Part shown: positions 2,165-17,816 of the stretch, piece by piece
Numbering within the stretch: the first letter of the stretch is position 1
Layout: each line of letters starts with the position of its first letter
Assembly: GCA_019058315.1 (NCBI GenBank)
Contig: JAHPZH010000001.1
Location: 725,069 to 789,068, forward strand
Source of the DNA: Candidatus Helarchaeota archaeon
GTDB taxonomy: Archaea > Asgardarchaeota > Lokiarchaeia > Helarchaeales > RDOG01
Direction: 5' to 3'
DNA: 64,000 nt
The notes under the pieces: model-generated
What the model saw: the letters and a program-made list of their open reading frames with translations, nothing else
Database searches by the model: none
What the model was told of the DNA's origin: nothing
Position numbers and translations under genes: made by a program

Positions 2165-3514
2165 TTAGCTATATTTTTTAATAAGCCGTTCAACTTGCTG
2201 AACTGAAGTACCGATATAATTCTTAGGATCTAGCCATTGATCCAATTCTTGAGAAGAAATCATTTGTTTTAGATCGGGGTCTTCTAAAATTCCTTCCTTA
2301 AAATCTAGATTTTCTTTTTTACATTTAATTGCGATTTTTCTTAATTTTTCATGTGCTATTTGTCTACTAATCCCTTTTTCAACTAATTTAACCATGATTT
2401 TTTCTGCAAATATCTGTCCTTTTGTCATTTCCAAATTATTTTTAATATTTTCATAATTAAATTCAAGTCCATGGATAATCGAAATCATTTGGGTAAGCAT
2501 ATAATCTAATAAAATGAAAGTCTGAGGATAAATAACTCTTTCACAAGCTGAGTTTGAAAGATCACGCTCATGTTCTTGAAGGGCAGCATTATCAAGTACA
2601 GGGATTAAGTTTGAATAAATTACACGAAATAGACCACAAATCCGCTCGGATTTGTGTGGATTGCGTTTGCTGGCTAAGGTTGAACTCCCTACTTGCGATT
2701 TCTTGAAAGGTTCGAATATTTCAGCAATTTCAGTTCTTTGAAGATTTCTTATTTCCTTCGCGATTTTTGATAAAGTTGTTCCAACTAATGCGAGAAAGAA
2801 AAAAATCTCTGAATGTAAATCTCTCGGAACAATTTGGTTTGAAATTTCACTTTCTTTTATACCTAATTCAGACATGACTAATTTTTGAATTTCGAAACCT
2901 TTTTCTCCAAAACTAGCCATTGTACCTACCATTCCACTCATTTTTCCTGCAATTGCTCTATTTAAAATTTCTTTATTTCTTTCTAAATGCCTATTGATTT
3001 CAGTTGCCCAAAGAGCAAATTTCATCCCATAGGTTGTAGGTACTGCGTGCTGTCCATGTGTTCTACCTACACAAACTGTTTCTTTCTCACGTTTTGCTAT
3101 TTTTATTAATCCTTTTCTTAATTCTAGTAGTCTTGTATTAATAATTTTTAGAGCATCTCTCAAAATTAAAGCCCATGCTGTATCTACTATGTCATAACTA
3201 GTTGCTCCATAATGTATGTAACCTCCTGCATCTTCCTCACAAACTTCTGCAAATGCTCGCACCATCGCCATTATATCGTGATGGATTTGATTTTCAATTT
3301 CTTTTACCCTTTCTAACTTGACAAATTGTGTTGAACCTTTTTTTTGAATTTTTTCAGCTGCCTGTTTAGGGATATTTCCTATTTTGGCATGGGCATTAGC
3401 CAAAGCAACTTCTACATCTAACCATTTTTGCAATTTATATTCTTCAGTAAATAAGGATTTCATTTCTTTTGTAAAATATCTATATTCAATGGGACTTACT
3501 GCCAAAATATTCAC
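2165..3514 (-). CDS. purB: Adenylosuccinate lyase
   Basis: HHDIMA, IHYGATSYDIVDTA, GRTHGQHAVPTT, SSxxxxKRNP, HERDLSNS. Confidence 0.95.
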   Translation of the reverse strand: MNILAVSPIEYRYFTKEMKSLFTEEYKLQKWLDVEVALANAHAKIGNIPKQAAEKIQKKGSTQFVKLERVKEIENQIHHDIMAMVRAFAEVCEEDAGGYIHYGATSYDIVDTAWALILRDALKIINTRLLELRKGLIKIAKREKETVCVGRTHGQHAVPTTYGMKFALWATEINRHLERNKEILNRAIAGKMSGMVGTMASFGEKGFEIQKLVMSELGIKESEISNQIVPRDLHSEIFFFLALVGTTLSKIAKEIRNLQRTEIAEIFEPFKKSQVGSSTLASKRNPHKSERICGLFRVIYSNLIPVLDNAALQEHERDLSNSACERVIYPQTFILLDYMLTQMISIIHGLEFNYENIKNNLEMTKGQIFAEKIMVKLVEKGISRQIAHEKLRKIAIKCKKENLDFKEGILEDPDLKQMISSQELDQWLDPKNYIGTSVQQVERLIKKYS

Positions 3515-3551
3515 CTAAAATATTTAATCATATTTCTCTAATATTCATTAA

Positions 3552-4922
3552 TTAATTACACTTTTTTAAAATACCTTCTGCGGCTATTAATCCAGAAAGT
3601 GCAGCTGCAACAATTCCTCTAGTTAAACCTGCACCATCTCCAGCCACAAATAAATTATTAACACTTGTCTCTAAAAATTGATTGGTAATTACACGTTTAG
3701 CAGAATATTTAATTTCAGGAGCATAAAGCAATGTTGAATTATTAGCCACTCCTGGGATCAATTTATCTAATTTTTCCAAAGCTTCGATGATATCTATGAA
3801 GATCCGATGAGGCAATGCCATGCTGATATCTCCAGGGGTCACATTTTTAAGAGTTGGTTGTATAAAATTATTTTTTAATTTGCTCCACTTAGATCTTCTA
3901 TTTTTTCTTATATCCCCTAATCGTTGTATTAAAGGTTTTCCTCCCCCTAATGTAGCACAATTGAACGAAATAGTTTCTCCATAGGCCGTAGTGTCTTCTA
4001 ATGGTTCTGTCAAAGATATCTTTACAAGTAAAGCAAAATTTGTATTGTTTGATCGCTCTGAAAGAAAAGAATGACCATTTGTTGTAATATTTCTTTCTCC
4101 ATAAACTTCCTGGACTACGAAACCTTGATGATTTACACAAAAAGTCCTGACAAAATCATCATAAGTAGGAGTAAAAATATGAAATTTCGGATCTCTTGCA
4201 ATAGAACAAATAGGTTCCATTACTGTAGATGGTACTTCAACTCTTACACCAACATCTAATGGCTCATATCGTGTTTCTACACCAATTTCACTCATTTGTT
4301 CTGAAAGCCAAGTCATACCAGATCTACCTGGTGCTACTAGACAAAAATCATATTTAATTTCTTTTCCCTTTGTTGTTATTATTTTATTGGGTCTTATAGT
4401 ATCTACTTCCGTATTTAAAAGAAATTCGACCCCATTATTTTCTAATTTTTTTTGGATTGCACTAATTACTTTTGGGGCGTTTTCAGTACCTATATGTCTT
4501 TGAGTTATGGGAATAAAATGTATACCAACTGAATTTGCTTTATTTTGTAATTCTTTAACTTGTGATTGCGAAGCTTGATATATATTTTTAGGAGCTCCAT
4601 TAACAACAAATACATTATCAATATAATTAATTAATTCTAAAGCTTTTTGTTCATCTCCTGCTAAATTGCTTAATTCTCCGCCAATATTAGGATTTAAATT
4701 AAGTAATCCTGAAGAAAATAACCCCGCTCCACCTACCCCAGATAAAGTACGGCATGGTTCACAATTAGAGCAATATCTATAATCCTTTTGTAATTCACAA
4801 TGCCGATTTTTAACTGGAGGTCCCTTATCTATAACTTTAATTTCTAATTGTTTATTTTCCATTAATTTATATGCTGCAAATAATCCTGCAGAACCTGCTC
4901 CAATAATTATAATTTTTTGCAT
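3552..4922 (-). CDS. FAD-dependent oxidoreductase (COG2509-like)
   Basis: IIGAGSAG Rossmann motif, CxxCxPC, GVGGAG, VRTFC, YAPEIKY, AGDGAGLTRG. Confidence 0.85.
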   Translation of the reverse strand: MQKIIIIGAGSAGLFAAYKLMENKQLEIKVIDKGPPVKNRHCELQKDYRYCSNCEPCRTLSGVGGAGLFSSGLLNLNPNIGGELSNLAGDEQKALELINYIDNVFVVNGAPKNIYQASQSQVKELQNKANSVGIHFIPITQRHIGTENAPKVISAIQKKLENNGVEFLLNTEVDTIRPNKIITTKGKEIKYDFCLVAPGRSGMTWLSEQMSEIGVETRYEPLDVGVRVEVPSTVMEPICSIARDPKFHIFTPTYDDFVRTFCVNHQGFVVQEVYGERNITTNGHSFLSERSNNTNFALLVKISLTEPLEDTTAYGETISFNCATLGGGKPLIQRLGDIRKNRRSKWSKLKNNFIQPTLKNVTPGDISMALPHRIFIDIIEALEKLDKLIPGVANNSTLLYAPEIKYSAKRVITNQFLETSVNNLFVAGDGAGLTRGIVAAALSGLIAAEGILKKCN

Positions 4923-4987
4923 TTTATTAAGATCCCAATTCGATATTGATAAAATTAATTTCTAGAGATGAGTTCTATTAAATCAAG

Positions 4988-5467
4988 TTATTCATATTTT
5001 TTCCTTTTTTGTTCTCTATATAATTTTAGTTTTTCAGTCAATTCCTCGTTATATATAGCTATGATCTGAATAGCCAGAAGAGCCGCATTAGTTCCGTTAT
5101 CAATTCCCACAGTCGCCACAGAAATTCCTGGCGGCATTTGTACAATAGAAAAAAGTGCATCTAAACCACCTAAATTAACGTTAACGGGAACGCCAATAGT
5201 AGGTTTAATTGTTTTGGAAGCTATCACTCCTGGTAATGCAGCCGAAAGCCCCGCAATAGCTATAAATACTTGTGCGGGAGAAGAATTTATATAATTTTCT
5301 AATAAATATGGAGAGCGATGCGCTGAAAAAATTTTAGTTTCAAAAGGAATTTCGAATTCATCTAAAATATCAGTAACTTGCTTTACAACCTCTCTATCAG
5401 CTTTATTTTTACTACCTGCAATAACTGAAATCAAAATATTGCTTTTTTTCACATCAATATCTGACAT
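4988..5467 (-). CDS. purE: N5-CAIR mutase / AIR carboxylase
   Basis: [42 protein letters not shown]. Confidence 0.95.
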
Positions 5468-5590
5468 ATAAACTCCTTCAAAAGTTTTTTGATAATTTTT
5501 TTATTTATGTATTTAATAATTATTATTCTAATCCTATTAATAAAGAAAAAATACTATTTTCAATTTCTTATTTATGTCGAGAGAATTTCA

Positions 5591-8500
5591 ATGGTCAGTT
5601 TAATAGAATGGATACCAGATTTTTCTTATTTTGCATATAAAGTGGCAAATCCTATTAATTTAGCAAAAAGTTTAAAGTATCTAGAAGAAAAAATCAAAAA
5701 AGGTGATATATTTCAATCTCTTGATGTTTTATTTTGGACTATTGTTTTAATTGACCGCCTAGATAAAAAAGAATTAATAGATAACAAATTAATAAAAAAA
5801 TACATTTCTGAATTAAAGCATGAAGATGGTGGTTTTAAATTCTCGTCTGATTTAGAAAGTCCAGACACATTATCTACTTCTTATTCCATAGCCATTTTGA
5901 AAATATTAGGAATAAACGAGCTTATCGATGATAAGGATATAAATTTTATTATAAATTCTCAAAATGAGGGAGGATTCATTCATTGTAATTCCAAAAGTTG
6001 TCATATTAATTGTAAAGGAAGAGCCTCGGTCGAATTTAGCTTGTATGCCCTTACTGCATTAATTCTATTAAGTAAACTTGAAAAAATAAATAAAAAACGA
6101 TTAATAGATTACTTAAAAAGAGAGACAAAGGATAACATTGAGTTAATTTATCAAATTCTCGGTTTAAAATTAATTAATGCACTTAATATTGATGATTTTG
6201 AGAGAAAATTTCCAATTTTAACATCTTGGCAATTACCGAATAGCGGATTTGGAATTAATACTAAATTTCCATCTGCAGAAGATACATATTGGGTTGGTAT
6301 CTGTCTAGGCTTATTAAAAAAACTGGATTTAATAGAATTTAATGGAGTATTAGATTTTATAAGGGGTATGCAACAAGATAATGGAGGTTTTACAGGTCAA
6401 TATACTAGTATAAGTTCGCAAAAACCAACTTTAATTAATACAGTACAATGTATTGTAAGCTTATTTTATATTTGGAATAATATAATTGAGATAATTGAAA
6501 ATGAAATTCTTCTGTGTGCCCGTGATTTTTCCGATATTTATTTAATTCCAATCACTGAAAAATTCTCGGTATCTATGGATCTAGTGGTAGAAATTGCCAA
6601 TTGGCTTATTTCAAATAAATGGATTGAAGGAGAAATAATAAATAGAGAAGTGATGTTTGATAGTTATTTTAATAAACAGAATCAAATCTCTCAAGAAATA
6701 ATAAACGCAATTATGAAACACGTAAAATCTTTCCAAAAACAAAAAGAACTCGATTTGAAAGAGTTAAGTAAGAATTTTGATTTTTCCAATCCCCTAGAAA
6801 GGGTAAAATTAGTTGTAAATGATTTACTTATCAATAAATTTTTAACAGGGAATGTAAAAGCCTATAAGAAAAAATATATCCTTGAAAATTTTGCTCTACC
6901 TGGTAAATATATCCAGCTTTCAAAACCAATTTCGTATGAGGAGATAATCGGAGAAAAGAAACGATTGGAAGTAGATAAACAAAAATTAATTACCCTTCGT
7001 TCAGAATTAATTAAAACCTCTAGAACTATTTTTGAAGAAATTCAGAAATTTATTGATAAGGAAAAAATTACTGAAGCAAATAATAAATTACAGGATGAAA
7101 TAAAATCCACAAGAGAGAAAATTTCAAAATTAGAAGAATTGATGAAAAACCTCAATTCTGAATATAAAATAATTGATTTTAAGTTATCTAATTTTAAATT
7201 CCAAAAAAACTGGCCATCAATAAAAAATGTAATTATAAAAGAGCTCAGTACAACAAAATTAAAAATAGAAGAATTAATCAAGAAAAAGGAAAAAGATATT
7301 TCGAAACGTTCCCAAGAGAAGAAAGAAGAAGAGGCTATTAACACTTTACGTACAAAATTAAGAGAAATTAAAAATAAAATGAATTTGTATCAAGTTGAAA
7401 TTAAGAATTTTTTTCCAAAAAATTTTACTGATCATGAAAATACACTGAAATTAATTAATTCTATCTCTGATTATGTTATTGAATCTGATTCTAACCTCAA
7501 TTCTGAGTTTTCAAATTTATCTTCTGATCTGAAACTTGAGAAATTTAAAAAAGAGCTTGAACAAGTCAAAACGTCCTGGGAAAAGGAGAAACAAGATAGA
7601 AAAGAACTTATCAAATCCTACCATATCAAAATTGAAAAGAGAATTGAATTAGAAAAATTAATTGAAAAAGTTACTTCAGAACTTGAAGAATTCTCTAAAA
7701 ATAAAAATGAACAAATCATAAAACTAACTAATGATAATAAATTAGATGAAGGCTCTAAATTATTAAATGAATCCATTAATAAGTTTAAAGAATTGAATTT
7801 AAAACAAAATAAAGCTATTAAAGATTTTTTAGAGAAAATAAATAAAGAAATTTCTGATTTTTCTAAATATTCTAGCGATCTTGAATCGGATTGGCAAAAA
7901 AAATTCAAAATTGAAGAAGAAAGATGGGATAAAATAGTATCCGAATTGAATACAAAACTCCATTCAAGCTTTGAAATTGAAAAGAAAGATGAATTGGATG
8001 AAAAAATGAAGCACTATGCCGAGGATATTAAAACCTCAATAGAAAAAATGAAAAAAACTGTATTAGAATTAATTGAAACTGATAAAGTGATTGATGCAGG
8101 AAATAATACCAAAGAATTGACTGTAAAAATAGATGAAGAAATTAAAAGATGTAATCAAGAATGTAAGGATTTTATAAAGGATAAAAGTCGTGATTTTAAA
8201 AATTTTCGCGAAACTGTAAATTCTATTATAGAAAATTGGGAATCTGATAGTGAAAAACTAGTCCAATCCTTAGAAGAAACAAAAATTGAATTAAAAAAGA
8301 AAATAAATGAAAAAGGATCAGAATTAAGAAAAATTCAACTAGAAGAACTAATTAAAAATGAAATTTCTGAAATTGAAGGTAAGATTGATAACTTTAAACT
8401 AAATTTTAATCAAACTATTGATTTTGGAAAAAAATTAGACGATTTTGAAGAGAAATTTGAAACAGAGTTATCTCAAATTAGGGATTCGTTAAAAATTTCT

Positions 8501-9283
8501 GATGATAAAATAAAAGATGTTATTAAAACTGCATCAAAGATTTATGAAATATTTGAAGAGCTAACATCAAAAGAAATTAAATATTGGGATGATTCAAAAT
8601 CTTCAATCGAAAATCAGTTAGAAATGATTTCAGGAAAGATCAATGATGAAATTCTAATAGTGAAAATACAAACAATAGTCAGTGCTTTTAAAGGTAATAA
8701 AATTGATTTAAGTTATTTATCCAAGGCATTAAAAACCAAATTTGAATCTCTTAAATTAAAAATAATTGAATTAATTTCTGAAAAAAGACTTGTTGGTGAA
8801 CTTGATACCTTTGATATGTTCATTTTAAAGGAAGAGGCTAGTCCTAGTAAATTATTAATAGAACAGGTAAATGAAATAAAGAAAGATATATTAAGAACGC
8901 GTTATTTAATGGTAATACATAATGAAATAGGAGCTTCTGTTTATAATAGACAATTAGGGGATTGGGACCTCGATCCAAGTCTGATGAGTGGATTTTTATC
9001 AGCAATCCAGAGTTTTAGTTCAGAAATCAAGAAGAAAAAGATTCCCATGAAACGGATGGAATATAAAGATTTTGAGATTATAATGGAACAAGGGGATTAT
9101 ATATTAGTGGCTTTATTCATAGATGGAAGAGAATCGGACTGGCTTCGAAGCAAATTAAAGTTATATGTTACGGAATTTGAAAAAGAATATGGAGAACAAC
9201 TAAAAGAATGGGGCGGTGAACTTGCTACATTCAGAAAATCGGGATTTTTAGTGGATAAAGCATTTGAATTATTTAGAGTGTGA
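5591..9283 (+). CDS. Multidomain protein: prenyltransferase-beta-like alpha/alpha barrel, PCI-like winged helices, long coiled coil, C-terminal longin domain
   Basis: QxxDGGF-type repeats in the N-terminal ~300 aa; LSYLSKAL...IIELISEKRLVGELD winged helix; longin RYLMVIH..G..Y...DPSLMSGFLSAIQSF. Start placed at ATG 5591 because 5489-5590 looks like AT-rich intergenic sequence. Confidence 0.8.
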   Translation: MVSLIEWIPDFSYFAYKVANPINLAKSLKYLEEKIKKGDIFQSLDVLFWTIVLIDRLDKKELIDNKLIKKYISELKHEDGGFKFSSDLESPDTLSTSYSIAILKILGINELIDDKDINFIINSQNEGGFIHCNSKSCHINCKGRASVEFSLYALTALILLSKLEKINKKRLIDYLKRETKDNIELIYQILGLKLINALNIDDFERKFPILTSWQLPNSGFGINTKFPSAEDTYWVGICLGLLKKLDLIEFNGVLDFIRGMQQDNGGFTGQYTSISSQKPTLINTVQCIVSLFYIWNNIIEIIENEILLCARDFSDIYLIPITEKFSVSMDLVVEIANWLISNKWIEGEIINREVMFDSYFNKQNQISQEIINAIMKHVKSFQKQKELDLKELSKNFDFSNPLERVKLVVNDLLINKFLTGNVKAYKKKYILENFALPGKYIQLSKPISYEEIIGEKKRLEVDKQKLITLRSELIKTSRTIFEEIQKFIDKEKITEANNKLQDEIKSTREKISKLEELMKNLNSEYKIIDFKLSNFKFQKNWPSIKNVIIKELSTTKLKIEELIKKKEKDISKRSQEKKEEEAINTLRTKLREIKNKMNLYQVEIKNFFPKNFTDHENTLKLINSISDYVIESDSNLNSEFSNLSSDLKLEKFKKELEQVKTSWEKEKQDRKELIKSYHIKIEKRIELEKLIEKVTSELEEFSKNKNEQIIKLTNDNKLDEGSKLLNESINKFKELNLKQNKAIKDFLEKINKEISDFSKYSSDLESDWQKKFKIEEERWDKIVSELNTKLHSSFEIEKKDELDEKMKHYAEDIKTSIEKMKKTVLELIETDKVIDAGNNTKELTVKIDEEIKRCNQECKDFIKDKSRDFKNFRETVNSIIENWESDSEKLVQSLEETKIELKKKINEKGSELRKIQLEELIKNEISEIEGKIDNFKLNFNQTIDFGKKLDDFEEKFETELSQIRDSLKISDDKIKDVIKTASKIYEIFEELTSKEIKYWDDSKSSIENQLEMISGKINDEILIVKIQTIVSAFKGNKIDLSYLSKALKTKFESLKLKIIELISEKRLVGELDTFDMFILKEEASPSKLLIEQVNEIKKDILRTRYLMVIHNEIGASVYNRQLGDWDLDPSLMSGFLSAIQSFSSEIKKKKIPMKRMEYKDFEIIMEQGDYILVALFIDGRESDWLRSKLKLYVTEFEKEYGEQLKEWGGELATFRKSGFLVDKAFELFRV

Positions 9284-9426: not shown

Positions 9427-11553
9427 ATGTCATTTAAAAAAAATTTGGAAGATACAAATAAATTATCCAAAAAACAAATGCATAGTAAAGCAGAAATTAA
9501 AGATGCTATGGAGACTTTAAGACAAGAAATAAAAGAAAATGTAAAAACTTTGACTCAGTTTCAAACTGATTTAAAAAAATATTTTCTTCGAAACTTTAGG
9601 GACCATTTATCCACAAAAGATTACATTAATTCTTATTCAGAATTTATTGAAAAAGCTGATTCTACTCTAAGTTATAATATTTCAAAAATATCTGATTTTA
9701 TCCAAGAGGAAAAAAATAAAAGATCAATTTTAAAATATAAGACATTTTGGGCGAAAAATCGGAAAAAAGGTTTGGATATACTTCATATTTACCAAAGTAG
9801 ACTTAATAAACGAATTGAATTTGAAGAATTTATTAATGAAAGGATGTCTGAATTACAAAACTTTACTGATGAATTAAATAATCAAATAATTAATATGATT
9901 AATGAAGATAATTTGAAAGGAGCGGTTCATTTATTAAATGATTCAATTAAGCAATATGATCAAATTGTTTTAAAACATAATGTTGAATTTAAGGAGTTTA
10001 AAAGTGTAATTAATAGGGAAATGGCTGATGCGATTAAATTCTTTATTGATTTAAAAACATCTTGGATTAATAAAAATAATGAAGAAAAGATAAGATGGAG
10101 AAATTTTGTTATAGAAACAAGAAAAAAACTATCAACTACAAAAGAATCTGTATGGAAAGACGAATTGGAAGAAAAAATAGGAACTTATATTGACAATCTA
10201 GACAATTCCATTGATGATATGAAAGAAGAAATATCTAGATCAATGGAAACTGAAGATCCTATTAAACTTGTAATGGATTTAAAAAACCAATGTGCCACAA
10301 TTAATCAATCTATAAATAACTATCATAATGATATTAAAGTTTCTATTAGAAGTTCTATTAAGGACTTTAAAACCTCTCGTGAATCAATAAAAGATCAGAT
10401 TGAACACTGGCAGAATGAAAAGAAAAGAATTACGAATTATCTAAATGAAATTAAAAATGAATTGAAAGATGAAATTGATAATATAGGTATAGATGTTAAA
10501 ACTGAAGAATTACAAAAATTAATTAAAATGCAATTAGATGAATGGAAAAATAAAGTTAAGGAATTTATATCAAATTATAATGACTTTGTTGATACTGGAG
10601 AATCATTAATTAGTTATGAACCTAAATTCGAAGCAGAAAAAACTCAAATTAAAAAATCTTTCAAATCATCAGCATTATTGAAAGCATTTTTAAAAGATAC
10701 ATCCCGTGTTTATTCATCTTTTAATAAAATAGTGGATACTGATATTCAAGCTTATAAAAATTCAAGAAGTGTAATAGAGCATAACTTTGAATTAATAACT
10801 AATAAAATTAAAGAAGAAATTCTCATTCAGAGAATACAAGCGATAGTAAATGTTATAAAAGATAATAAAGTGGGAATAAGTTATTTAGCAAAAGCATTAC
10901 GAGTTGATGCAAAAGCATTAAAAAGAAAAATTATTAGCCTTTTAGCAGAATTCAAATTAATAGGGGAATTAGATCCCGTTTCTGGAATGTTCATTTTAAA
11001 AGAAAAAAAATTGCCTAATAAACTCGAAATCGATGAAGAATTAGAAGAGGAGCAAATTTTAGAAGAAGAAGAGGAAGAAGAAGAGGAAGTAGAAGAAAAA
11101 GTCGAAGAAAAAATAGAAGAAAAAGTAGAAAAAGAAGAAGATCTCATCAAAAAGGACATCTTAAGAATTCGATATCTAATGGCAATACATAAATCAGTAG
11201 GTGCATCTGTATATAATAGAAAACTGGGGGATTGGAAACTTGATCCTGATTTAATAGGTGGCTTTTTAACTGCTATCCAAAGTTTGAGTACGGAAATTAA
11301 GCAAAAAGAAATTCCTATAAAACGAATGGAGTATAAAGAATTTGAAATACTAATTGAACCTGGTGAATATGTTTTTGTCGCTTTATTTATTGATGGAAAG
11401 GAAACCGATTGGATTCGTGAAAAGCTTAAATTATATGTACAGGAATTTGAAAGTACATTTGAAGAAAAATTGAAAAATTGGTTGGGTGAATTGAGTGCTT
11501 TTGAAAAATCAGGACTTTTAGTTGATAAAATATTTGAATTATACCGTGTATGA
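9427..11553 (+). CDS. Coiled-coil / PCI-like / acidic linker / longin domain protein, paralog of the upstream gene
   Basis: ISYLAKAL...LIGELDPVSG; poly-Glu linker; C-terminal 135 aa about 70% identical (hand count) to the upstream protein. Confidence 0.85.
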   Translation: MSFKKNLEDTNKLSKKQMHSKAEIKDAMETLRQEIKENVKTLTQFQTDLKKYFLRNFRDHLSTKDYINSYSEFIEKADSTLSYNISKISDFIQEEKNKRSILKYKTFWAKNRKKGLDILHIYQSRLNKRIEFEEFINERMSELQNFTDELNNQIINMINEDNLKGAVHLLNDSIKQYDQIVLKHNVEFKEFKSVINREMADAIKFFIDLKTSWINKNNEEKIRWRNFVIETRKKLSTTKESVWKDELEEKIGTYIDNLDNSIDDMKEEISRSMETEDPIKLVMDLKNQCATINQSINNYHNDIKVSIRSSIKDFKTSRESIKDQIEHWQNEKKRITNYLNEIKNELKDEIDNIGIDVKTEELQKLIKMQLDEWKNKVKEFISNYNDFVDTGESLISYEPKFEAEKTQIKKSFKSSALLKAFLKDTSRVYSSFNKIVDTDIQAYKNSRSVIEHNFELITNKIKEEILIQRIQAIVNVIKDNKVGISYLAKALRVDAKALKRKIISLLAEFKLIGELDPVSGMFILKEKKLPNKLEIDEELEEEQILEEEEEEEEEVEEKVEEKIEEKVEKEEDLIKKDILRIRYLMAIHKSVGASVYNRKLGDWKLDPDLIGGFLTAIQSLSTEIKQKEIPIKRMEYKEFEILIEPGEYVFVALFIDGKETDWIREKLKLYVQEFESTFEEKLKNWLGELSAFEKSGLLVDKIFELYRV

Positions 11554-11566
11554 GATTTTAAATTCT

Positions 11567-12478
11567 TTAATGATTCTTAATAAATTTATTTAATATTTTT
11601 TTAGTGGGTAATCCTTCTCTTGCTCCAATATGTTGTATTTTAATTGCAGCTGTTGCGTTACCCATTTTTCCACAATTTTCTAAATTTTGATTGTTTAAAA
11701 TACCTGTAATAAATCCTGCTGAAAATGCATCACCTGCACCTGTTGTATCTAATGGTTTAACCTTATAAGGTGGAATTTTAAATTTATTTTTTTTATCTGA
11801 TATGAGAGATCCATTAGATCCGAGAGTTATCGCAGCAATTTTAGGACCAATGTCAAATAGCATCTCTAAGGCATCCTCTAAAGAATGAACCTCCATTATT
11901 TTAATAAGTTCATCTTGTGGAGAAATATAAATGTCTGTTAAAGAAATTAAGTGTTCAATCTCTTTTAATCCTTGATCTGCTATCAAAGCACCGGGATTTA
12001 GACTTACTTGGGTTGGAAAATTTTTAACAATTTCAGCAGCTTTCTCTAATGGGGCGATATTTTTTAAACTTGCTAAATGTATTATTTTCGATGAAATAAT
12101 AATTTCTCTTTTGATATCTTTAGGTTCTAAAATATTTGCTGCTCCGCTAAAAGCATATAATTTACGATCTGCCCCACTTACCGCTGCATAACATACACCT
12201 GTGCCAATCTCATCCGAAAAAACAATACCCTCTATATTAACTTGTTCATTTTTAAAATCTTGAATCAACTTTTCTCCGAAAGCATCTCGACCTAATTTGC
12301 CGATGAATGCGGACTTTAAACCCAATTTAGCACATGCAACCGCAAAATTTGCAGCTGATCCCCCACTTTTTACTTGTAATTTAGGTACATAAACCTCGTC
12401 ATCAATTTCAGGAAAGCGATCTACAACCGCAACCAAATCGACTAATGCTGCACCAATTGCAGTAACATCGATTTTCAT
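11567..12478 (-). CDS. PfkB/ribokinase-family kinase
   Basis: GGSAANFA, DTTGAGDAFSAG; start at the ATGA overlap with the upstream stop. Confidence 0.9.
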   Translation of the reverse strand: MKIDVTAIGAALVDLVAVVDRFPEIDDEVYVPKLQVKSGGSAANFAVACAKLGLKSAFIGKLGRDAFGEKLIQDFKNEQVNIEGIVFSDEIGTGVCYAAVSGADRKLYAFSGAANILEPKDIKREIIISSKIIHLASLKNIAPLEKAAEIVKNFPTQVSLNPGALIADQGLKEIEHLISLTDIYISPQDELIKIMEVHSLEDALEMLFDIGPKIAAITLGSNGSLISDKKNKFKIPPYKVKPLDTTGAGDAFSAGFITGILNNQNLENCGKMGNATAAIKIQHIGAREGLPTKKILNKFIKNH

Positions 12479-13566
12479 CCTAAAGAACCTACCCAACCTC
12501 TAACTTTTTTTCTCATTAATTTCTGAGCTTTAATAATATCTTCTTTTTCTTTCGAAGATAATTTCTCTAAATTATTTATTATTGGCACAAAATTATTTTT
12601 TATGAAATACTCCCTACTATCTGAATCTACTAAATCTTTTGGAATCTTTTTAGGATCGTTTTTAAATTCTGGATATTTTTGTTCCCATTTCTCAATGAAT
12701 TCCCAAATATCTGGATATGCATTAAATATTACTAATATTCCAACTGAATCTGGTGAAGTAACAGCAATATTTGCATAGGGAACGGAATATTCATTACCAT
12801 TCCAAGATATTGCAAAAGCTCCCTCTCTTCCTGCTCGATCAAGCATATTTTTATCCGTTATACTATCCCCAGTAACTATCATCTCTGATATAGGATAATT
12901 AGTTTTTTTCGATATCTCTTCTAATGCCTTTTCTTTGCGCTTTCCTCCTCTCACAATTACTTTATTCATAACTTTTATATAATCACTTTCTTGATTTTTC
13001 CAAAAATAGTTGTTTAAATCATCTATAACTGTCTCAAGTTGAAGATTTTTCTTCAAATATTTGGTAAAAATATCATCAATTAAGTTATTAATACTTTCAT
13101 TAATGTCTTTTATTTGATTTTTTAATTCCTCTACATTCAAATTAGTACAATAAATATGATCTTGCTCAATACCTAATAAATTTCCAATATTATGTGCATG
13201 TTGTGTGTAGCTTGTAGAAATTACATAAACATCCCAGTAATTTTTTTTGATGCTTGATATAGTCTTTTTAATCCCCCGATTTAAACCTGGTCTATTTTTA
13301 GAGATTTCTATTAATTCGTCGTTATTAAAATACCAAATATAAAACGGGGCCAATAATCTTAAAGTGTCGCCCGGTTCATAACTTTCAATACCTAATTCTT
13401 TAACTATTTCTGGATAATCAATTAAATAATCGTCATAATTACTGAGCATATTAAAGAAGTCGCCTAATCTCTCCCTCTTTAGTTTAGGTTCTAATAATTT
13501 ACAAATTTCAGCTGCAAAATCGACATGACTTAAGGGACCTTCAAGATCCCATGCACATACTTTCAA
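12475..13566 (-). CDS. HAD-superfamily phosphohydrolase, EhaR-like
   Basis: WDLEGPLS motif I, YEPGDTLRL, ISTSY, GDSITD, WNGNEY. Confidence 0.75.
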   Translation of the reverse strand: MKVCAWDLEGPLSHVDFAAEICKLLEPKLKRERLGDFFNMLSNYDDYLIDYPEIVKELGIESYEPGDTLRLLAPFYIWYFNNDELIEISKNRPGLNRGIKKTISSIKKNYWDVYVISTSYTQHAHNIGNLLGIEQDHIYCTNLNVEELKNQIKDINESINNLIDDIFTKYLKKNLQLETVIDDLNNYFWKNQESDYIKVMNKVIVRGGKRKEKALEEISKKTNYPISEMIVTGDSITDKNMLDRAGREGAFAISWNGNEYSVPYANIAVTSPDSVGILVIFNAYPDIWEFIEKWEQKYPEFKNDPKKIPKDLVDSDSREYFIKNNFVPIINNLEKLSSKEKEDIIKAQKLMRKKVRGWVGSLG

Positions 13567-13588
13567 TTTTTATTTTTCTCCATAAATC

Positions 13589-14770
13589 TTATTCTTCTTT
13601 TCTAGGAGGTATTTTAAAAACTTTTCTTAAATACTTCAAATACTCCTTATCCTTGCACATTTGCTTACCAGGACTATCGGATATTTTTGCCACAGGAAAT
13701 CCATTGCATTGGGTCATTTTGATTACAATTTGTAAAGCTTTAGGACCCAAATCATTTGTTAAATTCGTTCCTATCCCAAATGAAATTCTTATTTTTCCAT
13801 TATATTTTTCAGCTATCTTTATTGCTTTAGGAACTGTTAATCCATCACTAAAGACTGCCATTTTGGTTTTTGCGTCAATTCCAAGACGCGCATAAAGCTT
13901 TATTAATTTTTCACACCACTCATAAGGGTCTCCGCTATCATGTCGACATCCGTCATATAATTTTGCAAAATAAGAATCGAAATCTCTGAAAAAAGCGTCC
14001 ATGCCTAATGTATCAGATAGAGCAATTCCCAATTCGCCTCTATATTCATCAGCCCAACTCTGTAATGCAAATTTTTGGCTATCTATCAACCGTGGACCTA
14101 AGGCTTGAGCAGCTTGTAAAAATTCATGCGCCATCGTTCCAATTGGTCGTAAATTAAATTTTTTAGCAAAATAAACATTACTAGTTCCTACAAATTTATC
14201 TGAAGGTAGTTCCTTACTCAATTTGTCAATTAAATGTTCATGCCATTCCCTTGAAAATCGTCTCCTAGTGCCGAATTCGATTAATTTAAACTCATAATCA
14301 GTTATATCTTGAATTAATTTAATTTTAGTATTAATTCTTTTGTCTCCCTCTTGCCATAATTTTTTCTTATCATGTTTTTGGTTTCTAAAATAGGTTTCAT
14401 TTACAATGGCAAGGATAGGAACTTCGAAATAAATCGTAGTCAACCAAGGTCCAAATATTTTCAATTCAAAACCATTTTTTGTATCAATTTGAACTTCAGA
14501 ACGGTTAAGTTGTAAAAGTCTTAAGAATTCTAAATATGTATCTTTAAAATATCCTAATTTTTTTAAATAATCGAGTTCATCTGCATTTAGTCTTAATTTA
14601 CATAAATTGTCGATTTCTTTTGATATTTCATCAGAATATGGAGTTAAATCAATACCTTTGGTTCGATTTTTAAAAGTATATTCTACAATAGCTTGAGGAA
14701 ATTGGTGAAAGACCACTTGACCCATCGTTAATTTGTATAAATCTGTATCTAACAAGCTTTCTATTATCAA
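13589..14770 (-). CDS. pncB: Nicotinate phosphoribosyltransferase, bacterial type
   Basis: SLLDTDLYKLTM, EFGTRRRFS, GTMAHE, RHDSGDP, FGIGTNLT, AKISD. Confidence 0.95.
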   Translation of the reverse strand: MIIESLLDTDLYKLTMGQVVFHQFPQAIVEYTFKNRTKGIDLTPYSDEISKEIDNLCKLRLNADELDYLKKLGYFKDTYLEFLRLLQLNRSEVQIDTKNGFELKIFGPWLTTIYFEVPILAIVNETYFRNQKHDKKKLWQEGDKRINTKIKLIQDITDYEFKLIEFGTRRRFSREWHEHLIDKLSKELPSDKFVGTSNVYFAKKFNLRPIGTMAHEFLQAAQALGPRLIDSQKFALQSWADEYRGELGIALSDTLGMDAFFRDFDSYFAKLYDGCRHDSGDPYEWCEKLIKLYARLGIDAKTKMAVFSDGLTVPKAIKIAEKYNGKIRISFGIGTNLTNDLGPKALQIVIKMTQCNGFPVAKISDSPGKQMCKDKEYLKYLRKVFKIPPRKEE

Positions 14771-14795
14771 TTCTTAATCCTCTAATGAAAAAGTA

Positions 14796-16133
14796 TTATT
14801 TACCAAGAACTTTTTTCATATGAGCAATTCGTAAATTCAATAAATCTAAGGTTCCAACATCACTTCTATGATACAATTCTCCTTTTATGTATTTAATTGA
14901 TTTTTCGGCAATACGTTCAGCGATTTCAATTTTATCAGCTATACCAAGAACTCCGATGCTTCTAGATTTAGTCGTTGTTATTTTCCCATTCTCCTTATTA
15001 ACGGAGGCATAATATAGTCTTGCACCTTCTTTTTGTACTGCTTTTTCATCAACAATAACTTCTGTTGGTTTAGCATCAACTGGATAACCTTTGGGTGCTA
15101 GATATTTACAGACTGTAGCTTTATTTTCAAATTTTATCTTTAATGTATTTAATTTTCCATCAATAATCCTTTCACAAATCTCCACAAAATCATTCTTTAG
15201 TATCGGTAGCACATTCATAGCTTCTGGATCTCCAAATCGAACATTATATTCAACTAATTTAGGTCCATCTCGAGTTAACATAAATTGACCATATAATATT
15301 CCTTTATATTCTTGACCAGTTTCTTTTTTAACACAATCTACTGTTTTTTCCATTATTTGAATTGATTCTTTAATGGTTTTATCATCCACAAATGGTAATT
15401 TATGATCGGAGCAAGAATATGAACCCATACCTCCAGTATTGGGACCTTCATCACCATTTAGTAGTCTTTTATGATCTTGAACAAGCGGAGAACCTACTAA
15501 ATGTGAGCCAGTGCCATCAATAAAAGCTTGAAGTGTAAATTCTTCACCTATCAATTTTTCTTCCATTATTACTCTACTGCCACTTTTTATCAATTCTTGA
15601 CAATAATCAAGAACTTCTTTATCATTCATTAAATGGTCTCCTGTAACCTTAACTCCCTTTCCACCAGTTAGACCATCAGGTTTAACAGCAACTTCATTAT
15701 TTTGATTTAGAAATTTCTTTATCTCTTCCATATCTGAAGAAATAATATGCTCAGGATTACCCGGAATTTTATATTTTGTCATTAAATCTCTACAAAAAGC
15801 TTTACTAATTTCTAATTTTGCTGGTTCTTTTTTAGGACCGACAGAAGGAACTCCCAATTTTACCAATTCATCCGCAATACCATCTCCTAGTGGTGATTCC
15901 GGACCTATAACTGCAAAATTTAGATTTAAACCTTGCACAAATTTTTGTAATTTTTCAAAATCATTTAATTTACCCAGTAGTATTTTAGCACTAAGGGCAT
16001 CAATGCCAGGATTTTTTGAACTCATAAAACTAAATAACTCTATATCACTTTTTTTCAAGGATTCAGCTATAACATGTTCTCTAGCTCCATGTCCTACAAG
16101 AAGAATTCGAGTTTTATCACCCATTTTTGTCAC
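14796..16133 (-). CDS. purD: Phosphoribosylamine-glycine ligase
   Basis: GxGAREH, GPESPL, GKGV, QDHKR...GPNTGGMG, EYNVRFGDPE. Confidence 0.97.
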   Translation of the reverse strand: MTKMGDKTRILLVGHGAREHVIAESLKKSDIELFSFMSSKNPGIDALSAKILLGKLNDFEKLQKFVQGLNLNFAVIGPESPLGDGIADELVKLGVPSVGPKKEPAKLEISKAFCRDLMTKYKIPGNPEHIISSDMEEIKKFLNQNNEVAVKPDGLTGGKGVKVTGDHLMNDKEVLDYCQELIKSGSRVIMEEKLIGEEFTLQAFIDGTGSHLVGSPLVQDHKRLLNGDEGPNTGGMGSYSCSDHKLPFVDDKTIKESIQIMEKTVDCVKKETGQEYKGILYGQFMLTRDGPKLVEYNVRFGDPEAMNVLPILKNDFVEICERIIDGKLNTLKIKFENKATVCKYLAPKGYPVDAKPTEVIVDEKAVQKEGARLYYASVNKENGKITTTKSRSIGVLGIADKIEIAERIAEKSIKYIKGELYHRSDVGTLDLLNLRIAHMKKVLGK

Positions 16134-16356
16134 CTTTTTTTAAAAAAGTTCATTTAAAAGTTTAAATTAATTTAAATAATCCAAAATATTAATTTTTGTT
16201 TCGTAACTCATTTATTTAATCAAAAATTTCTTTCAATTAATGAATTATAAATAAGTAAAATAATCAATTAGATAAAATCCCTAAAATTTGCATTGAATAT
16301 TTTGAAATTTTAAAATATTTTTAAAAAATATCAAGTAAATTGAATAAATAATGTAA

Positions 16357-17814
16357 TTAAATGAGTGCGTGTTGATTGTGTAACTCTTTTTCTAACTCTT
16401 TTAAGTCAATTGAACCTCTTAACTTATATTTCCCCGTTAAACAAGCAGTACATAATTCTGCTTCGGGTAAATCAAGTGCTTCTAATAGTCCATTAAGGGT
16501 TTGATATTGCAAAGTATCTGCATCAATAAATTTCCTAATTTCTTCAATAGTCTTTGAAGGTGCTATTAATTCAGAAGTAGTAGGAAAATCTATACCCATA
16601 TAACAAGAATTAATTATAGGTGGGCATGAAATCCGAACGTGAACTTTATTTGCACCAAAATTCTTTAACATTCTAACAATTCTTTTAGTAGTGGTTCCTC
16701 TAACAATGGAATCATCAACTAATATGAGATCTTTTCCTTCTATTAAGCTTTTAATGGGATTTAATTTATATCTAACAGCGAGATCTCTATAATTCTGTCC
16801 TGGCATAATAAATGTTCTGTGAATATAACGATTTTTAATTAGTCCCTCTCTAAGAGGAATTCCCGACTCAAGAGAAAATCCCGAAGCTGCAGTACGTCCA
16901 GAGTCTGGAACCGGCACCACAACATCTGCATCAACTGGAAAATCTCTTGCTAGAATCTTTCCTAATTTTTCTCTTACTTCATAAACCGTTTTACCATAAA
17001 ATATTGAATCTGGTCTTGCGAAATAAACGAATTCAAACATACAAAATGCATGAGTTGGTAGTTTATACACTTGTTTTGATGAAATTCCTGTATCATCAAT
17101 TTTTATTATTTCTCCAGGTTCAAGATTTCTAATAAAATCACCTTCTAAAGTATCAATTGCTATACTTTCAGATGCTATTACTTCTAAATCCTGATCTGGA
17201 ACTCTACCTAAAGCTAATGGTTTGAATCCTAATGGATCCCTAAGTCCATATAATTCTTTTTTTTCATTTAGTATAACTAAAGAGTAAGAACCATCCAACT
17301 CTTGCATTGATAATTCTAATGCTTTAAGGAAATCATTATTGGTTTCTAATAAATTTTTTGCGATAATATGTGCAATTACTTCTGTATCGGTAGAAGTTGA
17401 AAAAACATGACCCTTTTCTCGATATTTCTTCTTTAATCGAATAAAATTAGTAAGAGTACCATTAAATGCTAAACAAAAACTATTTCCATTTGAATGTGAT
17501 TCAAATAAAAAGGGTTGTGCACAATCTAAAGAACTAGCTCCCACTGTTCCATACCTAACATGTCCAATAGCGACCGAACCAAACAAACCCATTAAAATTC
17601 TCTCAGAAAAAACTTGATTTACTAATCCTATTTCTTTATAACCAGTGATCCTATTTGCTACATTAGTAAATATTCCTGCAGATTCTTGTCCTCTATGTTG
17701 AAGGGCTAATAATCCATCATAAACCTGCTTTGATACATGATGACTTGGGATATTTGAATAAATCCCAATAACTCCACAGGATTCTCGAGGTTTATCAAAA
17801 TAGGTTCCTTTCAA
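16357..17814 (-). CDS. purF: Amidophosphoribosyltransferase (propeptide and Fe-S type)
   Basis: ESCGVIG, LQHRGQESAG, GHVRY, DDSIVRGTT, CMFE/CYMGID/CTAC cysteines. Confidence 0.97.
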   Translation of the reverse strand: MKGTYFDKPRESCGVIGIYSNIPSHHVSKQVYDGLLALQHRGQESAGIFTNVANRITGYKEIGLVNQVFSERILMGLFGSVAIGHVRYGTVGASSLDCAQPFLFESHSNGNSFCLAFNGTLTNFIRLKKKYREKGHVFSTSTDTEVIAHIIAKNLLETNNDFLKALELSMQELDGSYSLVILNEKKELYGLRDPLGFKPLALGRVPDQDLEVIASESIAIDTLEGDFIRNLEPGEIIKIDDTGISSKQVYKLPTHAFCMFEFVYFARPDSIFYGKTVYEVREKLGKILARDFPVDADVVVPVPDSGRTAASGFSLESGIPLREGLIKNRYIHRTFIMPGQNYRDLAVRYKLNPIKSLIEGKDLILVDDSIVRGTTTKRIVRMLKNFGANKVHVRISCPPIINSCYMGIDFPTTSELIAPSKTIEEIRKFIDADTLQYQTLNGLLEALDLPEAELCTACLTGKYKLRGSIDLKELEKELHNQHALI

Positions 17815-17816
17815 AA

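Follow-up and report, generated by a model that had tools for sequence, protein, structure and literature searches.

A prenyltransferase-type toroid without the canonical zinc ligands, joined to a helical rod and a longin domain in a Helarchaeota protein

The beta subunits of Rab geranylgeranyltransferase (RabGGTase) and GGTase-III (RABGGTB; PF00432; structures 3pz2_B, 1ltx_B, and 6o60_B) are (alpha/alpha)6 toroids with Gly-Gly-Phe repeat loops. Longin domains are found in Sec22b, VAMP7, TRAPPC1/C4 (Bet5/Trs23), the CPLANE proteins Fuzzy and Inturned, Mon1-Ccz1, the N-termini of AP sigma and mu, SRX, and the Lokiarchaeota protein 8yqg, and they can pair through helix alpha1 and an edge strand. 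Golgins and other long coiled-coil tethers combine a C-terminal anchor, which in golgins is either a transmembrane tail or a GTPase-binding domain, with a long helical rod and an N-terminal capture module. Here we describe a gene of Candidatus Helarchaeota archaeon, a member of the Lokiarchaeia (assembly GCA_019058315.1; 5.79 Mb, 12 contigs, 94% complete), that encodes a protein, P0002, combining a toroid of the first type with a longin domain through a long rod. It lies in a window of 64,000 nucleotides (contig JAHPZH010000001.1, positions 725,069 to 789,068), and positions below are those of the window unless stated otherwise.

P0002 shares its toroid and the Gly-Gly-Phe loops with RabGGTase beta, but it lacks the Zn ligands as well as the Arg and His that bind diphosphate, one of its repeats is degenerate, it carries an additional HCx4Cx3C loop, and its toroid is fused to winged-helix (WH) domains, the rod, and the longin domain. 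The latter has the full-length fold of known longins and, as predicted, their mode of pairing; it differs from them by an extra preceding helix, by the absence of a Pfam longin match, and by a context without SNARE, GTPase exchange factor, or coat components. The resemblance to golgins and long coiled-coil tethers is one of design (an analogy, with no homology claimed), and in P0002 a toroid takes the place of the short head motif, the rod consists of jointed repeats, and the Asgard cells examined so far have no internal membranes (PMC10933270). The features of the gene are as follows.

5591..9283, forward strand: whole gene of P0002, a single open frame of 1230 aa (toroid, WH1, WH2, rod, WH3, longin)
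5648..6526, forward strand: (alpha/alpha)6 toroid of the prenyltransferase-beta type, without catalytic Zn ligands (residues ~20-312; PF00432, AlphaFold2 (AF2) model, Foldseek)
5981..6013, forward strand: His131-Cys132-x4-Cys137-x3-Cys141 loop, an 11-residue motif and candidate metal site, at a gap position in the RabGGTase beta alignment
6527..6643, forward strand: WH1, a partial winged helix (beta-alpha-alpha-beta) packed after the last toroid helix (residues ~313-351; DSSP of the AF2 model)
6683..6925, forward strand: WH2, a canonical alpha-beta-alpha-alpha-beta-beta winged helix (residues ~365-445; DSSP, model confidence (pLDDT) about 90)
6935..8632, forward strand: helical rod of segmented amphipathic helices in ~115-aa repeats (residues ~449-1014; cross-matches of hidden Markov models (HMMs))
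8633..8833, forward strand: WH3, a winged helix of the PCI/UFL1 type (residues ~1015-1081; model pLDDT 91.8, VIA-align)
8849..9280, forward strand: linker helix and longin-fold domain (residues ~1087-1230; DSSP topology, VIA-align, co-folding)

The frame is open upstream from a TTG at 5489, and the 5489-5591 leader is an AT-rich hydrophobic run. ATG 5591 corresponds to the start position in all orthologues, which share the N-terminus M-x-x-x-x-W-I-P-D/E-F, and we therefore place the start there, giving a product of 1230 aa. A word-indexed search of 5.8 billion proteins recovered 11 full-length relatives and a partial one (39-84% identity, 1227-1368 aa), as well as three distant relatives of ~1470 aa (P0014-P0016). 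All orthologues with a named source came from metagenome-assembled genomes (MAGs) of Asgard archaea (Helarchaeota, Hodarchaeota, Lokiarchaeota, and Promethearchaeota). The mean column identity over the 11 orthologues was 59%, with conservation along the whole length; on this comparison the gene is real, conserved, and under selection. A previous reading of the same DNA made from the letters only (the sequence-only reading) knew of no characterized protein with this architecture, and we also found no paper describing it in the searchable literature, including work on Asgard archaea together with golgins, alpha-alpha toroids, geranylgeranyltransferase, or prenylation. The toroid-rod-longin combination is thus undescribed in that literature, and it is assembled from known folds.

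The identity of the head was established in several ways. PF00432 matched P0002 with 54.7 bits (cut-off 26.5). A phmmer search of residues 1-340 against PDB sequences returned only RabGGTase/GGTase-III beta (E 4e-7), a match that a profile of the family lifted to E 5e-18. The AF2 model of residues 1-470 (14-row alignment; pLDDT 86.9, predicted template-modeling (TM) score 0.82) contains twelve helices arranged as six hairpins. When it was compared with the PDB by Foldseek, the top 17 matches were RabGGTase beta chains (E 2e-9 to 3e-7; TM score 0.67-0.70 by target over ~300 columns, with ~20% identity), followed by GGTase-I beta, FTase beta, and thioester domains. The prediction of an (alpha/alpha)6 prenyltransferase-type fold at the N-terminus was thus borne out. 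The four Gly-Gly-Phe repeats were found where they had been placed (residues 71-82, 119-129, 210-221, and 256-267), as was the TYWVGICLGLL segment (residues 232-249), while a fifth toroid repeat is degenerate.

In the ESM Atlas the toroid matched a Nitrospirota cluster with a TM score of 0.71, a Bathyarchaeota cluster with 0.77, and eukaryotic GGTase-II beta clusters with 0.66-0.76 (by target). As modeled, it resembles bacterial and Bathyarchaeota toroids no less than those of eukaryotes and is not specifically eukaryote-like, and the lead of RabGGTase beta in the PDB ranking partly reflects which structures have been solved. No stand-alone close relative of the toroid was found at E<=1e-3 among proteins of 30-675 aa. 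The host genome encodes a divergent stand-alone toroid of 313 aa (G000:C5; L001:1441-2382) with five GGF-type repeats, which opens with W-H-P-Y-W (compare W-I-P-D-F in P0002) and contains neither a D-x-C motif nor a Cys loop; its gene is preceded by that of a 190-aa helical protein (L001:828-1400). Another PF00432 match (27 bits; G000:C5:1041428-1041724, reverse strand) lies within a giant open frame of 14,439 aa.

Several features on which protein prenyltransferases depend are missing from this head. Both pairwise and profile alignments place the D-x-C motif of RabGGTase beta (D238/C240) opposite S228-A-E230 of P0002, and the orthologue columns at these positions hold S/T and E/K/H throughout. 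None of the P0002 orthologues has a conserved His after the last GGF, where the third Zn ligand (H290 in RabGGTase beta) would be expected. The alignment itself shows the D-x-C motif, and D238, C240, and H290 are what we take to be the numbers of the Zn ligands. R232 of RabGGTase beta aligns to I222 and H190 to N182, and only K235 is kept, as K225, in an alignment of ~20% identity that includes a model region (217-224) of low pLDDT; this Arg and this His are presumably diphosphate ligands. By contrast with these losses, W49 and W234 are invariant in the P0002 family and align to Trp residues of RabGGTase beta that, we assume, line the isoprenoid funnel. Most likely, then, the Zn chemistry and most of the diphosphate chemistry of protein prenyltransferases have been lost family-wide, which would make the head an apparent pseudo-enzyme.

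The rest of the genome was examined for partners and substrates of a prenyltransferase. The alpha-subunit model PPTA (PF01239) gave isolated single-repeat matches of 22-29 bits in the host genome, and the same model also gave matches below the cut-off in two control archaea. The best match, in a 1045-aa frame, scored 29.1 bits, or 29.6 with a same-frame neighbor, for a cut-off of 29.5. All stop-to-stop frames of the genome were translated and searched with a Ras model built from the genome's own best matches. None of the 98 Ras-family open reading frames (ORFs) ended in a CaaX, CC, or CXC tail, and only 2 of the 98 had a Cys within the last five residues, a count that covers Ras-family ORFs and not non-GTPase substrates; the tail after the G domain had a median length of 10.5 residues. 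This agrees with published observations that the GTPases of MK-D1 have no C-terminal Cys and that an analysis of Thorarchaeota Rab proteins detected no RabGGTase or REP homologues by BLAST (PMC10933270).

A notable conserved feature of the head is the His/Cys loop. His131, Cys132, Cys137, and Cys141 are invariant in the 11 orthologues and in P0014-P0016, and two paralogues of the same genome carry variants of the loop (HCx4Cx2C in P0168 and HCx4CxC in P0166). The loop precedes an inner helix, like the canonical Zn ligands, and the helix order in the model would thus put it on the side of the canonical Zn site, the open end of the barrel. We read it as a possible zinc knuckle with a structural role, set at the opening of the retained funnel.

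The toroid is followed by two winged helices, as the sequence-only reading had it, except that DSSP of the model shows only WH2 to be canonical (invariant residues N400, D411, and L412), WH1 being partial. The same reading had then assigned about 600 aa to a coiled coil. A long helical rod is indeed present (~565 aa), but it does not form a single uninterrupted coiled coil: helical segments of 30-70 aa follow one another, the heptad register shifts every 30-70 residues, and conserved Gly or Pro breaks occur at 542, 609, 758, 837, 909, and 946. Gly and Pro are rare in the rod, making up 1.4% of the 420 residues ahead of the tail. Further structure in the rod was revealed by HMM comparisons. The HMM of residues 855-975 matched 740-852 (9e-8) and the additional unit of P0008 (3e-25), that of 740-860 matched 638-730 at 6e-6, and that of 965-1030 matched 850-896 at 7e-6. 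The repeats were delimited as 515-635 (weak), 635-745, 740-855, 855-975, and 975-1030 (partial), and each unit contains a conserved Trp (W541, 663, 768, 883, and 999). P0008 and P0012 have exactly one additional unit, such variation in repeat number among orthologues being as expected of a spacer. All this fits a rod of jointed helical-bundle repeats. The units (~115 aa, three helical segments, conserved Trp) were compared by sequence with the spectrin repeat, a three-helix bundle of ~106 aa, and Pfam Spectrin (PF00435) has no match in P0002. A language-model search of the ESM Atlas with residues 470-1020 gave no usable match.

WH3, at the end of the rod, matched the UFL1/DDRGK1 winged helix (VIA-align Z 10.2 over 60 aa) and the PCI winged helix of TREX-2 (Z 9.9 over 69 aa). 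Pfam PCI is sub-threshold in P0002 (E 1.2), reaches 0.0037 in a tandem paralogue described below, and is on record for five orthologues. The label "PCI-like" given earlier to this third segment holds for the winged-helix subdomain only; each winged helix of P0002 is preceded by toroid or rod helices, in the position that the TPR-like helical repeats take in a PCI domain.

The model of residues 1015-1230 (147-row alignment, pLDDT 91.8) shows a canonical winged helix, a linker helix, and a domain of beta-beta-alpha-beta-beta-beta-alpha-alpha topology. No Pfam or NCBIfam family matched residues 1087-1230 at E<=10. Foldseek placed the tail in the longin/roadblock superfamily (Ragulator, MglB, AP sigma, Mon1-Ccz1, and Asgard roadblocks), and exhaustive VIA-align comparison distinguished between its two branches. 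Longins were matched over their full length (Z 10.5-12.9, 118-126 residues, root mean square deviation 2.7-3.3 A, 6-18% identity), with CPLANE first (Z 12.9 over 124 aa), then Sec22 (11.8), VAMP7 (11.7), TRAPP (11.4), and the Lokiarchaeota Roadblock-Longin protein (10.9), whereas roadblock matches covered only ~100 residues and ended before the last helix (alpha3). The C-terminal domain is thus a longin, as had been proposed.

Co-folding of two copies of residues 1015-1230 gave an interface score (ipSAE) of 0.60 (median of 3 runs), as compared with 0.00 for the best control, with a contact agreement of at least 97% and a partner pLDDT of at least 83. In calibration, 20 of 30 proteins whose structures are one-chain pairs passed the mark used for calling a dimer, as did 1 of 23 with single-chain structures. 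The predicted interface consists of alpha1 (1125-1147) and the antiparallel beta3 (1151-1161) across a two-fold axis, and WH3 plus longin is thus predicted to homodimerize in the canonical longin/roadblock mode. Because this is also the mode of the solved longin/roadblock dimers, the positive result may stem from likeness to them and not be independent evidence.

Further insight into the C-terminal end came from relatives that share the head. A head profile (toroid plus winged helices), searched in 301 genomes of the phylum, was found in 73 of them, including 65 of the 68 genomes of one Lokiarchaeia family and 4 of the 7 of another, almost always in a frame of ~1470-1500 aa; among the 300 other genomes of this sample, the longin-tailed form was found in only 3. 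Four of the ~1470-1500-aa proteins, among which one from a 4.36-Mb single-contig genome and P0168 of the host genome, were examined, and each ends in two hydrophobic helices and a basic tail instead of a longin. As this hairpin comes without a signal peptide, head and rod should be cytoplasmic by the positive-inside rule. Identity between P0002 and the anchored form is ~25% in two stretches, the first ~570 residues and residues 971-1072 (WH3); beyond the second they diverge. Both have the toroid with its His/Cys loop, the winged helices, the start of the rod, the PCI-type winged helix, and the head-rod-anchor plan; P0002 is ~240 aa shorter and ends in the longin, while the anchored form has more rod and the hairpin. 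In a maximum-likelihood tree of 19 heads (unrooted, with long branches), the 11 longin-tailed ones formed one group with 100/100 support. From these comparisons, P0002 is a rare, apparently monophyletic variant of a family that is near-universal in one Lokiarchaeia family.

P0168 itself (1473 aa; G000:C11:648601-653022; L018:1601-6022) has a toroid with the HCx4Cx2C loop, winged-helix domains, a longer rod, and the two-helix membrane hairpin with its basic tail. A third long paralogue, P0166 (up to 1291 aa; G000:C2; L017:1619-5494), has a toroid, winged helices, and a rod, with neither a longin nor a membrane tail, and is directly followed by the gene of a 376-aa P-loop (GSGKT) ATPase (L017:5528-6658).

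The longin module belongs to a sequence family that has expanded in Asgard archaea, and it has a much wider distribution than the toroid-headed rod. An exhaustive phmmer search with residues 1085-1230 against 1.84 billion representatives gave 1480 clusters at E<=1e-3 (302 at <=1e-10), with proteins of 116-2774 aa, and all ten looked-up relatives with names were from Asgard MAGs. In 66 relatives that were scanned, the module accompanied helix-turn-helix (HTH) and WH models, PCI, UFL1, DDRGK, Big, MG4, TPR, and LRR, and no Pfam family covering the module itself was common to these proteins. The N-terminal HTH model of HVO_0163, on which we found no useful literature, matched many of them. Three of the 66 matched Pfam E3_UFM1_ligase (3e-12) and DDRGK (6e-10), which, together with the structural closeness of WH3 to the UFL1/DDRGK1 winged helices, hints at UFL1/DDRGK1-type winged-helix arrays in Asgard archaea. 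The host genome contains the module in 136 ORFs, at the very C-terminus in 89; the larger of these ORFs have TPR/MIT-like or winged-helix-array heads, and a rod ahead of the module was found only in P0002 and its tandem paralogue. We considered whether WH3 and the longin travel as one mobile cassette and rejected this, as the closest other longins of the genome align over the longin part only (37% over 123 aa).

Four ORFs of the genome fuse the module to a Ras-type domain. A Ras-family ORF was found at <=1.5 kb from 24 of the 132 other longin ORFs, whereas random placement, repeated 1000 times, gave 9.7 on average (sd 3.0) and never more than 19; after merging of neighbors, 17 of 99 longin loci adjoined a Ras-family ORF. 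The longin-module family as a whole is thus tied to small GTPases in the host genome, in agreement with the literature on longin platforms and on Asgard domain shuffling. The solved longin/roadblock dimers are commonly GTPase platforms, according to the part of PMC10933270 that cites Levine 2013. One tandem array of six longin paralogues of ~355-385 aa (G000:C5:1285052-1291644) is directly followed by two Ras-family genes (C5:1291717 and C5:1292471).

The gene of P0002 itself is divergent from purE, within a purine-biosynthesis cluster, a synteny that is kept in the orthologues with 55-84% identity. The cluster comprises a purB-like lyase, a FAD protein, and purE on one side (2165-5467, reverse strand) and a PfkB kinase, a HAD hydrolase, NAPRTase, purD, purF, and a 740-aa ORF on the other (11567-20039, reverse strand); at the P0007 locus, the counterpart of the 740-aa ORF has purL (FGAM synthase) domains. 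The distant orthologues lie between AA_kinase and aldehyde-dehydrogenase genes, which in the locus that was scanned (L020, P0010) are proB and proA. The AA_kinase gene upstream of three orthologues had been considered as a link to isoprenoids, an idea that we dropped: in L020 it encodes glutamate 5-kinase (proB, 278.6 bits), isopentenyl phosphate kinase scoring 63 for a cut-off of 120. A gene with two gelsolin domains is found ~3.4-4.5 kb upstream of distant longin-tailed orthologues in three genomes (L020 3756-4754, L021 2512-3501, L041 1639-2634). Between P0002 and the second half of the purine cluster lies one more gene.

9427..11553, forward strand: tandem paralogue P0017, 708 aa (rod, winged helix, acidic linker, longin; no toroid), not part of the P0002 gene

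This gene starts 144 bp downstream of P0002, and its product is 40% identical to residues 570-1230, the longin parts being far more similar than the rods; a Glu-rich linker of ~35 residues precedes the longin. P0017 recurs only beside the 84%-identical orthologue (74% identity over the 265 aa available). It is absent beside the 75%-identical orthologue and all more distant ones examined, so that we rejected it as an obligatory partner. On this distribution it is a young, retained duplicate and not a general partner.

We tentatively favor, with a confidence that stays a little short of even, the view that P0002 is a non-enzymatic, dimeric, toroid-headed rod that forms the core of a scaffold or tether. 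Because prenyltransferase chemistry has been lost while the Cys-rich loop and the funnel Trp have been kept, the toroid is most likely a ligand-binding head, which could receive a lipid, a peptide, or a metal-dependent partner. The two winged helices and the jointed rod, with its about five repeats of ~115 residues, would hold this head some tens of nanometers from the C-terminus, where the PCI-type winged helix and the longin would pair with a second copy via alpha1 and beta3. Since the common form of the family bears a membrane hairpin at the equivalent end, we read the longin dimer as a possible replacement for that anchor. Instead of a permanent hold on a membrane, the rod would then have a reversible attachment to a partner, for which any of the numerous small GTPases is a plausible candidate; in docking to a small GTPase we have less confidence than in the scaffold or tether core. 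The sequence-only reading had suggested a tether or a lipidation scaffold. The former is compatible with our data and gains support from the hairpin-tailed paralogues, whereas the latter is disfavored by the replaced Zn and diphosphate residues, the lack of prenylation tails on the Ras-family ORFs, and a toroid that is not eukaryote-specific.

A number of points weigh against a GTPase-docked tether. The anchor swap is drawn by analogy, and the length of the rod, any pairing of two rods, the ligand of the toroid, and the partner of the longin are all putative. There is no Ras-family ORF near the P0002 gene, the nearest being 144 kb away, and none of the neighbors is conserved across all orthologue loci examined, the flanks being purine or proline biosynthesis genes. 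Furthermore, the heads to which the longin module is joined are many and unrelated (TPR/MIT, winged-helix arrays, Big/MG4, LRR), and the module may be a generic dimerization or regulatory unit, not an anchor; as P0002 holds one of 136 copies in the genome, its toroid-longin fusion is less special than it looked. These facts give some room to the main rival, which we consider possible but on the unlikely side: the longin would only dimerize or oligomerize, and P0002 would be a structural rod without any GTPase link, a cytoskeleton- or cortex-like element comparable to a spectrin-like linker, with a head that binds a structural partner. The predicted symmetric longin homodimer, the ~115-aa helical repeats with their conserved Trp and variable number, the lack of a GTPase gene near any examined orthologue, and the diversity of heads borne by the longin module are all in keeping with such an element. 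It accounts less well for the fusion or proximity of the longin family to Ras-family genes above chance in the genome and for the frequent role of longin/roadblock dimers as GTPase platforms (Levine 2013, in the part of PMC10933270 that cites it), and Pfam Spectrin does not match.

The His/Cys loop, which we take to be structural in the scaffold or tether reading, could instead be a relocated catalytic metal site (His131/Cys132/Cys137/Cys141), in which case P0002 would be an active transferase that modifies proteins brought by the longin. The invariance of the loop in the orthologues and the three ~1470-aa relatives, with near variants in the paralogues of the same genome, is the main argument for this; the loop would also be at the barrel end of the canonical Zn site, judging by helix topology, W49 and W234 align to the presumed funnel Trp, and K225 to the diphosphate-binding Lys. 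Yet P0002 has none of the three canonical Zn ligands and neither the Arg nor the His that binds diphosphate, the genome encodes no convincing alpha subunit and no Ras-family ORF with a CaaX, CC, or CXC tail, and the toroid is equally similar to bacterial or Bathyarchaeota PF00432 proteins and to eukaryotic GGTase-II beta, so that we regard a lipidation scaffold as improbable. Even less credible is a nucleic-acid or chromatin protein whose winged helices bind DNA or RNA and whose rod is an SMC/Rad50-type arm. P0002 has three winged helices, one source annotates a relative as 'prenyltransferase beta subunit/DNA repair exonuclease SbcCD ATPase subunit', and there is a faint SMC match (E 0.07), but the SMC/SbcC matches reflect coiled-coil composition only (10.8 bits for a cut-off of 567), no ATPase head is present, WH3 resembles the protein-binding PCI/UFL1/DDRGK1 class, and the common paralogues are membrane-anchored.

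If the scaffold or tether reading is extended, Lokiarchaeia would have golgin-like tethering with two kinds of anchor, a constitutive hairpin form in nearly all genomes and a rarer longin form recruited by an active GTPase, and the toroid would capture, on a second membrane surface or on a protrusion, either an isoprenoid lipid or a partner that carries a lipid. We think this extension unlikely. If it were true, GTPase-controlled membrane tethering would have had a prokaryotic precursor in this two-anchor system.

Asgard archaea have many small GTPases and longin/roadblock domains, and we know of hardly any effector or scaffold tied to them. The present data indicate that a prenyltransferase-type ring exists in Lokiarchaeia, as an apparent pseudo-enzyme on a long rod; for that reason P0002 is not evidence for archaeal protein prenylation. 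The 130-residue longin dimer would be a defined bait for finding binders, if any, among the about 100 GTPases of the genome. The exchange of a hairpin and a longin at the same end of homologous rods suggests that longins may act as localization modules in Lokiarchaeia, and the toroid-rod family may serve as a spacer or tether between a membrane (or a GTPase) and the putative ligand of the ring.

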